Positions 38,968-50,127 are shown, counted from the stretch's first letter. The stretch: 64,000 nt of DNA from a bacterium (GCA_003251635.1 QKEW01000008.1:33489-97488); one strand, 5' to 3'. The notes: generated by a model from the letters alone, not told the origin. Made by a program: numbers and translations.

Positions 38968-39000
38968 AGTGAGCGGGCTAGTTAATACGGTTAGAACTTT

Positions 39001-39687
39001 TTATTCATCAAATAACGATTTGTATTGTAGATTGACATAAAGTGCTTCTATTATAGATTGTACGAATCTTGCAATATTAATGTCGTCAATTCGATAGAAA
39101 TAATTATTTTTTCTTGAAAAGAAAATAACTGATCTACTAAAAGAAACTAAAACGCAAGGTCCAGAAAGTGTTTCTACCATAAATCTTGCCGATCCACTAC
39201 GTCTTTTTATTTCCCGAGCAAGTTCGTCAGTCTGTATATTTCTAAACAATGCCAGCGCCTTAGCACTGCCTATTCCTTTTAATACAATTCCCCTATCCGC
39301 AATCGCCTTTTGCCATTTAGGCAAACCTTTCTCGTTTTTCAAAAGATATTCTATTTCTTCATCCGACTCTATTGAATAGATTATGTCACCTTTTCGTAAC
39401 CCTAGCATTTCAACTAAGAGATCCTCAATTTTCTTTTTTGCATCATACGTATCACTCTTAACTAAGCTATTTGAAATCAAGGTATATTCAAATTTTTCTT
39501 TTTGGATAACATTTTTTCGCATTAATGAAAATATGGCATTATAAATACTTGTGCGAGCAAGTTTTAAACCTTCTGAAATTTCAGAAATGGATGCTTTTTT
39601 CTTCTTAAATTTCAAAAAACTCACAACCTTTTCTTCGGTTGGAGTAAATACCATATACTCTAATTCCTTTTTTAGTCTTTTTTTCAT
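39001..39687 (-). CDS. Winged-helix transcriptional regulator (cassette regulator, not clearly TrmB)
   Basis: ASISEISEGLKLARTSIYNAIFSLMRKNVIQKE helix-turn-helix. Divergent from a plus-strand small-gene operon. Confidence 0.5.
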   Translation of the reverse strand: MKKRLKKELEYMVFTPTEEKVVSFLKFKKKKASISEISEGLKLARTSIYNAIFSLMRKNVIQKEKFEYTLISNSLVKSDTYDAKKKIEDLLVEMLGLRKGDIIYSIESDEEIEYLLKNEKGLPKWQKAIADRGIVLKGIGSAKALALFRNIQTDELAREIKRRSGSARFMVETLSGPCVLVSFSRSVIFFSRKNNYFYRIDDINIARFVQSIIEALYVNLQYKSLFDE

Positions 39688-39781
39688 ATGTACATTAATT
39701 GTACATATTTTTACATTTTAGTCAAGTTAGATTATCGTGTGCTGTTGGCGAGCACCTTAACATACACCAAAGGAGGAGCTT

Positions 39782-40063
39782 ATGAGCATGCTAAAAACCC
39801 AAGGGGTAGCGGAGCGGAAATTTAAAGAAATTAAACCTGGAGAAAAATTCATACTATTCAAAGAAGAGGGTGATGGGGGTGGCATGTCTTCGGTTATAAT
39901 TCTTTATCCTTCCGAATCAATACTTATCAAATTGGATACCTCCATGTTTAAAGGAGAAGCATTTAAGTTTTTCAGATTTGAATTTAATGCTGTAAATTTA
40001 AGCACAGGAAAAATTGAACAAATAGACGACACTGCTCGTGTACAAAGGATCTGCTTTGATTAA
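39782..40063 (+). CDS. Small hypothetical protein (93 aa)
   Basis: RBS AAAGGAGGAG. No recognisable motif. Confidence 0.45.
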   Translation: MSMLKTQGVAERKFKEIKPGEKFILFKEEGDGGGMSSVIILYPSESILIKLDTSMFKGEAFKFFRFEFNAVNLSTGKIEQIDDTARVQRICFD

Positions 40064-40074
40064 TACCAAGGAGG

Positions 40075-40320
40075 TTGATCATGAATCATTTCACTTATGA
40101 AGCCAAACAAATGCAAACTGAAACTGAAAGTAGGGGCTTAAATAGATGCATAATATGTGGATTCAGGTGGAAAAATGAAGCTGAAAAGGAGCATATCTGT
40201 ACAGATTATATGGTGCCTGCTGATGTTGTATACTGCGTACTTGATCCTGCGGCTGCCATTATTGACACAACCTGGATCAAAAAGAGCTTGCTTGAATTAT
40301 TTCCAAATATCAAAGTATAA
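40075..40320 (+). CDS. Small Cys-containing (zinc-finger-like) protein (81 aa)
   Basis: RBS AAGGAGG. CIICGF...HICTDY...YCVLD. Confidence 0.45.
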   Translation: MIMNHFTYEAKQMQTETESRGLNRCIICGFRWKNEAEKEHICTDYMVPADVVYCVLDPAAAIIDTTWIKKSLLELFPNIKV

Positions 40321-40488
40321 GTGAAAAAAGTTCTAACCAATATTTAATGGTACCAAAAACAGGCTTTAAACAAAGCCTGTTTTTTAGGTTCGCCACTTAG
40401 TTAATACAGCCTGCCCCGAAGCAAGCCTCACTCTGCTACTGGGCTTAGAACTGGGTTCATTAAAAAATCCTTTCTTAAGGTTTTTTAA

Positions 40489-41244
40489 TTATATATTTTT
40501 AATTTCTAACTCTTTAGAGCCTCTCCATGCCAATTCAAAAACAAGTTTCTGAAATTTTGCATATTCATATGATTCAATGAGCATTCCAAACATTTCAGTT
40601 CCATAGGTTGCCACTGCAACCTTATTGCCATATATGTTCACTTCTACATCAATAGGAAAATCTTCTTCGGAAAGTAAGCGTCCTTCGCGCAATTGCTCCT
40701 CATTCTTAACTATATACGGAATTATTTCCTGGACTGCTTTGTAAATCCCGCGAAATTTTATTCCTTTTTCAATTCTTCTTTTAACATAATCTTCTGTATA
40801 TTCCGGCAAATGTTGTGTTATTCCCTCTCCCACATACCCTATAATCTCATCACCTTTTTTAAGACTTTTCAAGCTGTCTTCATACATTTCCCTTATACCC
40901 TCTTTGCCTTCGAAGTATTGGATGAACGGTTTTGATTTGGGAGCGTTATACAAATTCTGTAAAAGAGGCATAGCCTTGTGAATTCTTTCAATTCGCTCTC
41001 TTTGCCTATCTATAAGAGAAAGCGGATCAGCCGGGGAATAATATGACGTCTTACCTTTGATGCTTTTGTGAACCAAGCCGTCTTTCATCAATGAATTGAT
41101 GACGTCATAAGCCGTGGGCCTCTTAATTCCCGCCTTTTTGGCAATCAGATAGGCTGTCGCCCCGCCCAACTCCAAACAAGCCAGATAGACTTCTGCTTTC
41201 TTACCGTCAATGCCTATTTCTTCCAAAATTTTCTCTATTTTCAT
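40489..41244 (-). CDS. TrmB-family transcriptional regulator (paralog 3)
   Basis: MKIEKILEEIGIDGKKAEVYLACLELGGATAYLIAKKAGIKRPTAYDVINSLMKDGLV. About 60% identical to paralog 4 at 52500..53249. Confidence 0.75.
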   Translation of the reverse strand: MKIEKILEEIGIDGKKAEVYLACLELGGATAYLIAKKAGIKRPTAYDVINSLMKDGLVHKSIKGKTSYYSPADPLSLIDRQRERIERIHKAMPLLQNLYNAPKSKPFIQYFEGKEGIREMYEDSLKSLKKGDEIIGYVGEGITQHLPEYTEDYVKRRIEKGIKFRGIYKAVQEIIPYIVKNEEQLREGRLLSEEDFPIDVEVNIYGNKVAVATYGTEMFGMLIESYEYAKFQKLVFELAWRGSKELEIKNI

Positions 41245-48559: not shown

Positions 48560-48622
48560 GCAGAATCGAACTGCCGTTTCATCCTTGGCAAGGACGTGTA
48601 ATAGCCACTATACGATACCCGC
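48551..48622 (-). tRNA. tRNA-Gly(GCC)
   Basis: Acceptor GCGGGTA/TACCCGC, anticodon stem CGTCC/GGATG with loop TTGCCAA, T-arm GGCAG-TTCGATT-CTGCT. It overlaps the recombinase stop codon. Confidence 0.7.
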
Positions 48623-48703
48623 CTTCGCTAAAGCTTCGGCGGGCAAGCCCGCCCCAGTCTTAAACCAAGGCTAACTATTTTATTTTTATCTGCAATAAAC
48701 TGT

Positions 48704-49400
48704 GGGACCAGCAGGATTCGAACCTACGACCAAGCGGTTATGCTTCTCACTGCCACTTTCGCAACTTCTTTCGAATTTGTGAGCTGGACTATCCCTTCAC
48801 CCGTAAAACGGGGTCTGCCATCTAGTCTCTACACCTTCTTTGTTTGTACCATAGAATATGGAACATGCAAAGCTTGGCTCGGGATTGTCATAGATATAAA
48901 TATCCTTAGATTTCCCCGAATTTGACAGAATTCACTTGAAAATTACTTTTCAAGCAGCCCTGCAAATATCATTCATGTTATGTTATAATTAAATTATGAA
49001 AAAAATCATAACTTGTACCATTTGCAAAAAGACATTGTCTGGAAAACAAACAAAATTTTGTTCTCCAAAATGCAGAAATAAATCCCTGCAATCCTATCCT
49101 AGCCAACAAATTCGTGGCCTGAAAAGAAAGCGTCTTCTAGTAAAGCTAATGGGTGGATGCTGTTCAATTTGTGGCTATAGTAAAAATTTTGCTGCACTAA
49201 CATTTCATCATTTGAACCCAAAAAAGAAATCTTTCCAATTAGATCTAAGATCCCTATCCAATAGAAAAATGTCTAGGATTGATTCGGAAATGAAAAAATG
49301 CGTCTTGGTTTGCCAAAATTGCCACACAGAATTACATAATCCACAACACAATTTAGAATGAACTTTTTGAGCCGCCTGCTCTACCACTGAGCTATGGTCC
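48704..49400 (-). tRNA. tRNA-Ile2/Met-type (anticodon CAU) interrupted by a group I intron of about 625 nt
   Basis: Exon 1 (49400..49369): GGGACCATAGCTCAGTGGTAGAGCAGGCGGCT. Exon 2 (48743..48704): CATAACCGCTTGGTCGTAGGTTCGAATCCTGCTGGTCCCA. The joined sequence closely resembles E. coli tRNA-Ile(LAU). The intron follows U33 and ends in G. Its core matches the tRNA-Leu group I intron consensus (CAATCCCGAGCCAAGC, GAAGGTGTAGAGACTA). Confidence 0.7.
48996..49361 (+). CDS. HNH homing-endonuclease-like protein encoded antisense inside the tRNA group I intron
   Basis: Cys-rich zinc-binding N-terminus (CTICKK...CSPKC, CCSICGY). HNH motif FHHLNPKKK...N...CQNCH. It has its own TATAAT-like box upstream. 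Confidence 0.65.
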   Translation: MKKIITCTICKKTLSGKQTKFCSPKCRNKSLQSYPSQQIRGLKRKRLLVKLMGGCCSICGYSKNFAALTFHHLNPKKKSFQLDLRSLSNRKMSRIDSEMKKCVLVCQNCHTELHNPQHNLE

Positions 49401-49417
49401 CAATTCTCTCCTTTTTT

Positions 49418-49742
49418 GTGCCTCGGGTCAGAATTGAACTGACGACACAAGGATTTTCCTGTTTATTTCTCTTGAATTTCTTCAAGGATCGGACTATATC
49501 ATCTTCGTTCCCAAGGGAGTGCGAAGTCGGGCGCTTTTGCAAGATTATTGTTGGGACTCACTTGCTAGTCTCTACACCTTCCTCAAAACTAAAACCCTTT
49601 GAGGCTTGGCTCGGGATTGCCTTGTTTTTTCAAAAAATTTAGGTTTCCCCGAATTCACCCGATTTTTAATTCTACATTACTATAGAATGGACCGAAATTC
49701 AGTCCTTTGCTCTACCACTGAGCTACCGAGGCCTGCATAATG
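49418..49742 (-). tRNA. tRNA-Phe(GAA) interrupted by a group I intron of about 253 nt
   Basis: Exon 1 (49742..49711): GCCTCGGTAGCTCAGTGGTAGAGCAAAGGACT. Exon 2 (49457..49418): GAAAATCCTTGTGTCGTCAGTTCAATTCTGACCCGAGGCA. The joined sequence resembles bacterial tRNA-Phe. The intron contains GGGGAAACCTAAAT, ACAAGGCAATCCCGAGCCAAGCC and GGAAGGTGTAGAGACT, as in the cyanobacterial tRNA-Leu intron. Confidence 0.7.
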
Positions 49743-49777
49743 CTGCGCGCAGTTCATCATCTGATACTTTTACGCGG

Positions 49778-49851
49778 TGGGTGATAGTGGACTCGAACCA
49801 CTGACCCCTTCTTTGTAAGAGAAGTGCTCTAACCAACTGAGCTAATCACCC
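49778..49851 (-). tRNA. tRNA-Val(TAC)
   Basis: GGGTGATTAGCTCAGTTGGTTAGAGCA, anticodon stem CTTCT/AGAAG with loop CTTACAA, T-loop TTCGAGT. Confidence 0.75.
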
Positions 49852-50127
49852 GAAAATAATCAACAACTAACAGTTTATATTGAAAATTTACACCTTAACT
49901 AACTGCTTGCCCCGTAGTCAAATGCAAAGCATTTGTACTTCGGGGAGCTAATCACCTGGAAATAACTGACAACCAAAAACTAAAAACTTACAACTATCAA
50001 CCGACAATATTTAACAACATTTGGATTGTGAGCTATTTATTTAAGGTTTTCAAATCTTTCCTCTCACGGGAAACTACCGTTTCCCGACCCCTTCCCGTTC
50101 CAGTCCTCTTTTGCCAATTCTATTCCG

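Follow-up and report, generated by a model that had tools for sequence, protein, structure and literature searches.

The window analysed here is a stretch of 64,000 nt (GCA_003251635.1, QKEW01000008.1:33489-97488; positions are counted from its first letter) within a 178-kb contig of an uncultivated Parcubacteria/Moranbacteria-type bacterium of the candidate phyla radiation (CPR). CPR bacteria, or Patescibacteria, have tiny genomes and few recognised mobile elements, and their exchange of accessory genes is poorly understood. We describe a repeated boundary module that separates small gene cassettes in a low-GC island of this window, and its relation to an element that encodes a large serine recombinase (LSR). 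The GC content is 0.30-0.38 over 35-47 kb as against 0.38-0.45 outside, and the island terminates at a tRNA gene, that of tRNA-Gly. From 36.5 to 43.6 kb, three units, each consisting of a TrmB-like regulator gene on the minus strand and small open reading frames (ORFs) on the plus strand, are followed by a PhzF gene on the minus strand.

A sequence-only reading of the window had described a recurring hairpin element of ~65 nt in four copies, here called A to D, and this observation was partly confirmed. A (42644-42707) and B (40396-40454) are closely related: near-identical flanks (left, CTTAGTTAATAC[R]GCCTGCCCCG[W]AG; right, CT[R]CTGGG[S]TTAGAACTGG) enclose differing central stem-loops. D (38978-38998) belongs with them, with both flanks joined directly and the hairpin absent. 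C has TGCCCCGTAGT and a hairpin of similar build in common with A and B, and only loose similarity in the flanks; what it shares is the base of the hairpin. Two additional copies were found in the window, an inverted one, E (40322-40348), which resembles D at z=5.8, and one at 43831. In a scan of the 64 kb, a covariance model built from A and B (R1) scored its two training copies at 99 bits (A) and 82 bits (B) and everything else at 13 bits or less, including D at 10 bits (E-value 6.5), and it missed C at an E-value limit of 10.

The same frame recurs in other organisms, which supports the sequence-only reading in outline. Homologues (68-70% identity) of the TrmB-like gene 39001-39687 led to two Logan assemblies from other Parcubacteria-type organisms, L171 and L173, which together hold seven or eight copies, all of them hairpin-less, of the form intrinsic terminator, 4-6 nt, GAGC, N5, AGTYAAT, N4, TTNGAACT; no hairpin-bearing copy was seen in either assembly. 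A second model (R2) was built from seven of these foreign copies and D. Its matches in the window are E together with the second terminator, the left part of B, the inverted left arm of the first module, the module at the LF-X junction described below and, weakly, A. Nothing else in the 64 kb is significant (next match 14.4 bits, E-value 0.9): all copies lie within 38.9-48.6 kb and none in the other ~58 kb, and the modules are confined to the low-GC island, from 38.9 kb to tRNA-Gly at 48.5 kb. C was not matched by R2 either, and relatives without arrays gave no significant match. The pattern GAGC-N15-GYTHGAACT occurs three times in the window, never in 100 shuffles, and five times in L171 and L173. 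This is a real and non-random family of modules, found at three loci in at least two organisms, and elsewhere it stands beside unrelated genes.

The conserved flanks noted in the sequence-only reading turned out to be the right arm of a larger unit of ~95-135 bp that also takes in an upstream terminator and GAGC. On the plus strand the module consists of a left arm beginning AGTTCKAWC, an A-run, a GC hairpin, a T-run, 4-6 nt, GAGC, 15 nt and GTTMGAACT. The A-run, hairpin and T-run form a bidirectional intrinsic terminator by the criterion of a GC-rich stem-loop followed by a T-run, and the hairpin at 38937-38966 also appears in the list of terminators of the window. This central hairpin is 90% paired, with compensatory changes at six of nine pairs; it is lost in some modules (A, LF and the copy at L171 6041). 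The module ends pair, (C)AGTTC with GAACT(G), in all six full modules, and left arms score under R2 as inverted right arms (38906-38974 on the minus strand, 25.6 bits; L171 3975-4042 on the minus strand, 31.5 bits).

Four modules were delimited in the window (Table 1). Module 1, which abuts the stop codon of the TrmB-like gene 39001-39687(-), scores 76 bits on the plus strand as a training copy of R2, its left arm has an E-value of 0.0025 on the minus strand, and it matches the strict pattern exactly (0 expected from shuffles). In module 2, arm E directly follows the stop codon of ORF 40075-40320(+); E with the terminator (40323-40392) scores 37.6 bits on the minus strand (E-value 4e-6), and on the plus strand module 2 scores 26 bits. 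Module 3 sits 3' of the PhzF gene and reaches 15.9 bits; its centre, LF', is decayed and has no hairpin. LF' belongs to a direct repeat, in which the 46 nt to the left of the GAGC of A are 81% identical to 43794-43839 (LF), z=9, with the identity stopping at GAGCTG. Module 4 (43811-43864 under R2, 19.1 bits, E-value 0.075) is an exact match to the pattern. The left arms assigned to modules 3 and 4 are weak and, taken alone, not significant.

To judge from these copies, D is the canonical form and the hairpin-less state the common one, as in E and all the foreign copies, and not a central deletion as had been proposed. The hairpin of A and B looks like a secondary palindromic insertion of 35-40 nt in the right arm, between the inner arm and the GAACT motif, and is probably neutral or inactivating rather than a functional core. 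The sequence-only reading had taken the pairing of the three unlike stems as covariation and thus as a sign of a selected structure. However, three sequences cannot establish covariation, the hairpin is absent from most family members, and the compensatory changes lie in the adjoining terminator hairpin. When folding was compared with shuffled sequences, the A and C hairpins gave z of about -3, whereas B was no more stable than shuffles (z=+0.37 and +0.51). No strand was consistently preferred among A, B and C, and none of the three has a T-run on either strand. Apart from tRNAs and group I introns, no Rfam family reached its gathering threshold in the window, and nothing came near threshold at 38850-43900 or at C. 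The alternative offered earlier, a structured RNA or REP-like element, finds no support: an Rfam match and a strand preference are lacking, and the stems are not conserved in sequence. An origin of the frame from a tRNA was also considered and rejected: the similarity is not significant, and the 7-mer GAGCGGG alone is common to the frame and tRNA-Gly.

The modules have a constant relation to the neighbouring genes. A, B and D lie between convergent genes, as had been reported, and the right arm adjoins, in all but one of the cases examined, the 3' end of an opposite-strand gene, whose transcript would run through the stop codon, the motif, GCTC and the terminator in that order. In the window the pairs of gene end and module are TrmB2 and D, ORF 40075-40320 and E, TrmB3 and B, and PhzF and A; the same polarity is seen at L171 4039 and 4779 and at L173 1664 and 3859, and all copies within a locus have one orientation. 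In L171 and L173, the next gene has a promoter of the TGnTATAAT type that overlaps the module's left end, and with the module's own terminator this makes the arrays strings of 0.7-1.5-kb cassettes, each with a promoter and a terminator. The cassettes of the window (M1 to M3) are mutually unalignable as DNA except for the element and its adjoining terminator, the sole match in both comparisons, M2 with M3 and M1 with M2, and the modules are conserved far above the adjoining genes.

The LSR element extends from module 4 to tRNA-Gly and is delimited by two pairs of long inverted repeats. X (43831-43980) and X' (46705-46854) are 150 nt long and 99% complementary, and Y' (46851-46941) and Y (48463-48553) are 91 nt long and 100% complementary. 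X' and Y' overlap by exactly GCTC (46851-46854), and GAGC is the boundary of the outer copies, at 43831 for X and at 48550 for Y. All three junctions of the element (J1 to J3, Table 1) therefore fall exactly at the GAGC of modules; the attP-like junction is itself a module, and X opens with a module right arm. By its sequence, this arrangement reads as the attR, attP and attL pattern expected of a 4.7-kb element with two inverted attP copies that entered tRNA-Gly at its 3' end and left the encoded CCA intact. Since the joined ends recur as an internal inverted copy (46705-46941), the cargo and the LSR gene are both bracketed by long inverted repeats, and either could invert. The cargo segment (43980-46705) holds genes for a helix-turn-helix repressor, membrane proteins and a 374-aa unknown protein. 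An independent Logan assembly breaks inside X.

Spacing within the arms was counted from a central dinucleotide GA. Both arms of J2 (X and Y') have TCGAA at 20-24 and the module arms have T[A/C]GAA at the same distance, whereas in the T-loop of tRNA-Gly TCGAA is found at 15-19, 5 bp nearer to GAGC. In serine integrases, the motif of the zinc-ribbon domain is 5 bp nearer to the crossover in attB than in attP half-sites (PMC3783163), and the TCGAA spacings match this shift. A further candidate arm motif, GCTCGAACTGG at the start of Y, was given little weight, as it lies within the LSR coding sequence, where it is conserved in another sequence (L169).

Table 1. Positions of the modules, junctions and associated genes in the window.
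Feature	Position	Strand	Details
Module 1	38906-39002	+	Inverted left arm 38906-38930; bidirectional terminator 38937-38969; GAGC 38971-38974
Module 1, right arm	ends at 38998	+	Ends GTTAGAACT; contains copy D
Module 2	40322-40455	+	Inverted arm E 40322-40348; terminator 40355-40387; TCGC in place of GAGC 40390-40393
Module 2, right arm	40397-40452	+	TTAGTTAATACAG 40397-40409; 35-nt palindromic insertion 40410-40444; TTAGAACT 40445-40452; the module contains copy B
Module 3	42592-42707	+	Weak left arm CTTGTCTAAC 42592-42601; LF' 42601-42637; GAGC 42638-42641
Module 3, right arm	42645-42705	+	TTAGTTAATACGG 42645-42657; 40-nt palindromic insertion 42658-42697; TTAGAACT 42698-42705; the module contains copy A
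PhzF gene	42732-43577	-	
Module 4 (junction J1)	43783-43858	+	Left-arm-like stretch 43783-43794 (weak); decayed centre LF; GAGC 43831-43834
Module 4, right arm		+	GAGC-N15-GCTCGAACT
J1	43831	+	LF-GAGC-X; attR-like; 150-nt X starts exactly at GAGC
J2	46705-46941	-	X'-GCTC-Y' (Y-GAGC-X inverted); attP-like module just upstream of the LSR gene; pattern match on the minus strand
LSR gene	47084-48559	+	491 aa; Pfam Resolvase PF00239, Recombinase PF07508, Zn_ribbon_recom PF13408
J3	48463-48622	-	Y-GAGC (48550-48553)-tRNA-Gly; attL-like, with tRNA-Gly as B arm
tRNA-Gly(GCC)	48548-48622	-	3' end GCTC of ...CCCGCTCCA contains the GAGC core
Copy C	49895-49976	+	Hairpin 49909-49945, abutting GAGC 49945-49948 and the 32-nt duplicate 49945-49976

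We tentatively favour the reading that the modules are LSR attachment-type junctions of cassettes added serially beside tRNA-Gly, with the A/B hairpin as a secondary palindromic insertion, and hold it to be possible rather than probable. It draws on the breakpoints of X/X' and Y/Y' at GAGC/GCTC, the LF/LF' repeat ending at GAGCTG, the LSR gene within the element, the 5-bp spacing match, the low-GC island at a tRNA and the polarity that is constant but for one case, as well as on the reality of the family, seen in the absence of the pattern from shuffles and the recovery of the window modules by R2. An LSR system would insert small self-contained cassettes, each consisting of one or more genes with their own promoter and terminator, successively at the 3' end of tRNA-Gly, with strand exchange within GAGC. 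Modules D, E/B and A and the copies in L171 and L173 would be like junctions, the work of related LSRs in trans. The right arm, with T[A/C]GAA 20-24 bp from the crossover, may represent a P-type half-site, and the T-loop of tRNA-Gly, with TCGAA at 15-19, a B-type one. The terminator-bearing half may make the tRNA-proximal junction resemble the original target, and new cassettes would then enter at the same place. The outermost of the junctions would be module 1, whose terminator would represent what originally lay downstream of the tRNA operon. For D, E/B, A and the copies in L171 and L173 as substrates or products of recombination, the support consists of the common architecture GAGC-N15-GTTMGAACT and the LF/LF' repeat ending at GAGC only.

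Several points weigh against serial LSR integration. Neither excision products nor empty sites nor presence/absence polymorphisms were observed, and the contigs of L171 and L173, which are short, show no recombinase or tRNA. Over the inner 15 bp the arms of D, A and B depart from X, and the resident LSR may therefore not recognise them; B carries TCGC where GAGC is expected. On the LF (B') side of J1, TCAAA lies at 18-22 instead of the expected 15-19. Canonical LSRs do not recombine attP with attL, and serial entry would need a relaxed directionality. The module at L173 2363 lies between divergent gene starts, in exception to the polarity of the others. GAGC is only 4 nt long, and several of the spacing observations were made post hoc. 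Finally, the dyad axis of the module is the terminator loop and not GAGC, and with the terminal inverted repeats this fits a MITE (miniature inverted-repeat transposable element) at least equally well.

The foremost rival, although we think it the unlikelier account, is a palindromic repeat of the MITE kind that lies between genes, like the Correia, ERIC and RUP elements. The module would be a non-autonomous repeat of ~100 bp with AGTTC...GAACT terminal inverted repeats, a bidirectional terminator inside and part of an outward promoter at the left end; it would have spread via transposition or gene conversion and been kept for insulating neighbouring transcription units, and the LSR element would merely use or target one copy. 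The terminal stem kept in every full module, the left arms that score as inverted right arms, the compensatory changes in the central hairpin, as expected of a working terminator, and the promoter overlap in L171 and L173 all suit such a repeat, as does the gain and loss of hairpins within modules, which is typical of unstable palindromic repeats. Bacterial MITEs (Correia/CREE, ERIC, RUP) are likewise intergenic and about 100-150 bp long, with inverted repeats at both ends; they form a long hairpin when folded, are able to stop or start transcription, and occur as internal deletion or insertion variants. However, no target-site duplication is visible at the module ends, and neither a candidate transposase nor a parent insertion sequence was seen. 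The copies are clustered in islands, none being found in the rest of the window, and are in one orientation per locus. Moreover, transposition leaves unexplained why three breakpoints and the LF/LF' end coincide with a conserved, off-centre GAGC.

It is rather improbable that the module is a cis-acting RNA element of the 3' untranslated region (3' UTR). In this case the complement of the frame (5'-AGUUCUAACCGUAUUAACUAGCCCGCUC-3'), transcribed between stop codon and terminator, would act in 3'-end formation, stability or regulation, with the A/B hairpin as a structured extension. The position of the motif between the stop codon and the terminator of the same gene, in one polarity in all cases but one, is in line with this, and a short stem of AGUU and AACU can close the motif, placing the A/B hairpin within its loop. 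On the other hand, there is no Rfam match, the hairpin has no strand preference and that of B is no stabler than shuffles. No gene outside the island has the motif, as would be unusual for a general RNA signal, and neither the copy at L173 2363 between divergent starts nor the GAGC breakpoints are explained.

The sequence-only reading had itself proposed serial integration at one att site, with the hairpin element as the att site or scar at tRNA-Val, and this interpretation is partly supported: the copies lie at gene-module boundaries in an island seemingly built up serially by site-specific recombination, but the site to which the breakpoints point is the 3' end of tRNA-Gly with its GAGC core and not tRNA-Val. 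The observation behind it holds. C sits inside the tRNA operon, between tRNA-Leu(GAG) and tRNA-Val, and the adjacent GGTGATTAGCTC is identical to nt 2-13 of tRNA-Val (z=5.4). It belongs to a 32-nt direct repeat of 81% identity (49839-49870 and 49945-49976) that takes in the tRNA-Val leader and nt 1-13; the duplicate begins at GAGC and abuts the hairpin. On the transcribed minus strand, the leader and nt 1-13 are followed by the hairpin and then by a D-loop-like CAGTTAGTTAAGG (compared with CAGTTGGTTAGAG). However, merely 74 nt lie between the repeats, hence no element is present, C was missed by both models, A, B and D have no significant similarity to a tRNA, most family members lack the hairpin, and the breakpoints implicate tRNA-Gly. 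The tRNA-Val version is thus largely refuted and very unlikely. We regard C as a partial duplication of tRNA-Val with the same kind of palindromic insertion, a hairpin in the D-loop, and not as a module; it is probably related to A and B only via the hairpin. The duplication of tRNA-Val is real but separate from the module family.

An old tandem duplication of TrmB-type modules, or a chance likeness of AT-rich terminators, is hardly credible, for although three to five TrmB-family paralogues stand in a row and M1 and M3 are 62-66% identical in DNA over parts, the element with its terminator is the sole DNA match between cassettes M2 and M3 and is conserved well beyond the coding sequence, which rules out a passively decaying duplication, and it recurs beside unrelated genes elsewhere in a pattern never found in shuffles.

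The serial LSR reading can be set against known systems. In common with LSR att sites, the element encodes a recombinase that has Resolvase, Recombinase and zinc-ribbon domains, attL-, attR- and attP-like arms are exchanged at a single short core (in the resident element alone), the P/B half-site motifs are shifted by 5 bp except on the LF side, and integration is at a conserved gene 3' end. Composite islands of the staphylococcal cassette chromosome (SCC), with CcrAB, likewise consist of several cassettes, mostly without their own recombinase, separated by site repeats. The present junction differs from both in being a ~100-bp module with a terminator and terminal inverted repeats, much larger than the 40-50 bp of an LSR site. 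The cassettes are tiny, at 0.7-2.2 kb, two inverted attP copies are present in the resident element, and recombination is here a prediction from sequence.

With integrons the arrays share small, mostly single-gene cassettes of unrelated function in uniform polarity, and a partly palindromic site with conserved ends and a variable centre at the 3' end of the cassette. An attC site was rejected, as the RYYYAAC...GTTRRRY pairing is lacking: the order is reversed, with AGTT first and AACT second on either strand, and the flanks pair over 4 bp only. No IntI tyrosine integrase, attI or Pc was found next to the array, the ORFs flanking it being TrmB-like, weakly polyprenyl-synthase-like, PhzF and the serine recombinase. 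The present cassettes further differ in having their own promoters and terminators and a serine enzyme as the associated recombinase. Repetitive extragenic palindromes (REP) and their mosaic elements (BIME), which go with a REP-associated tyrosine transposase (RAYT), are also short imperfect palindromes between convergent genes, and the A and C hairpins contain GTAG. REPs are numerous, near-identical palindromes of 20-40 nt, conserved in sequence within one genome, whereas the only three hairpins here have unlike stems, none occurs in L171 or L173, and no RAYT was seen.

Several other features of the cassettes were recorded. Five TrmB-family regulator paralogues lie within 19 kb (34367-35146, 36539-37345, 39001-39687, 40489-41244 and 52500-53249); of these, 40489-41244 and 52500-53249 share 63% identity, and each is similar to a regulator that is widely conserved in Moranbacteria. 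Cassette M2, a TrmB-like gene with two small ORFs (38971-40348), is flanked by inverted units of terminator and arm (38921-39000 and 40400-40327, 72% identity over 81 nt), which on sequence is the layout of a putatively invertible segment. In M3, the ORF that corresponds to the small membrane ORF 37722-38009 is broken over two frames (41376-41492 and 41568-41687) and is likely a pseudogene or a frameshift; M1 and M3 are 66% identical in DNA over 338 nt at this split ORF (41376-41687).

The closest PhzF homologue (74% identity) is in a Parcubacteria contig, L155 (Ga0376277_0015982, 3-2906), where it adjoins a large serine recombinase; the surroundings are prophage-like and include ParB-methylase, terminase and TIR genes. 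The LSR of the window is 38% identical to that recombinase. With a PhzF gene beside an LSR there too, PhzF seems to travel with such elements.

At 35342-36517, a tRNA-Met(CAT) has an unusual anticodon arm, and a 365-aa ORF begins 2 nt after it. Integration of the island at this tRNA was considered and rejected; the ORF has only a weak polyprenyl-synthetase match and is not an integrase. In the tRNA operon, tRNA-Phe(GAA) (49418-49732, minus strand) has a 242-nt group I intron in its anticodon loop. A second tRNA (48702-49401, minus strand) has a 627-nt group I intron in the same position, with an HNH-endonuclease ORF (48996-49361) on the opposite strand; it is Leu(CAA) according to ARAGORN, but the long variable arm is absent and the identity is doubtful.

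Searches for further copies gave few results. The element is absent downstream of the PhzF homologues examined and of TrmB3 orthologues (74-84% identity), and a homology of the TrmB2 3' flank across genomes up to GCTC was dropped as the alignment was unconvincing. The pattern TAGTTAATAC-N{25,55}-TTAGAACT was too loose and gave, among the matches listed from genome-collection contigs, chance matches only. The strict pattern found no copies in JGI metagenomes, where both of its two chance matches were a glnB-upstream terminator, and none came from pattern scans of IMG/VR or from protein scans. A fragment 98% identical to the 39001-39687 gene (L170, ENA ERZ926216 contig k127_269976) was unusable, being a chimera studded with loxP (ATAACTTCGTATA...), a library or assembly artefact in a public metagenome. 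A non-exhaustive check of the literature turned up no account of an element of this kind from CPR bacteria.

It is conceivable, though we consider it improbable, that Parcubacteria-type CPR bacteria carry an integron-like cassette system run by LSRs and not by a tyrosine integrase, in which 0.7-2-kb cassettes with promoter and terminator would be inserted and shuffled at ~100-bp modules with a GAGC crossover, anchored at a tRNA 3' end, and inverted module pairs (D/E, X/X', Y/Y') would permit inversion. The boundary module would provide a sequence handle on the acquisition of accessory genes in CPR bacteria, as it marks small self-contained cassettes and coincides with serine-recombinase breakpoints. 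The cassettes contain regulators, methyltransferases, NUDIX and PhzF proteins and unknowns, and such islands could be sought in metagenomes with R2 or with GAGC-N15-GYTHGAACT after a terminator. If the link to the recombinase is true, the module would be part of a serine-recombinase counterpart of the integron and of SCC-type cassette accretion. If it is false, the module would still be a MITE-like terminator and promoter repeat family in CPR bacteria.

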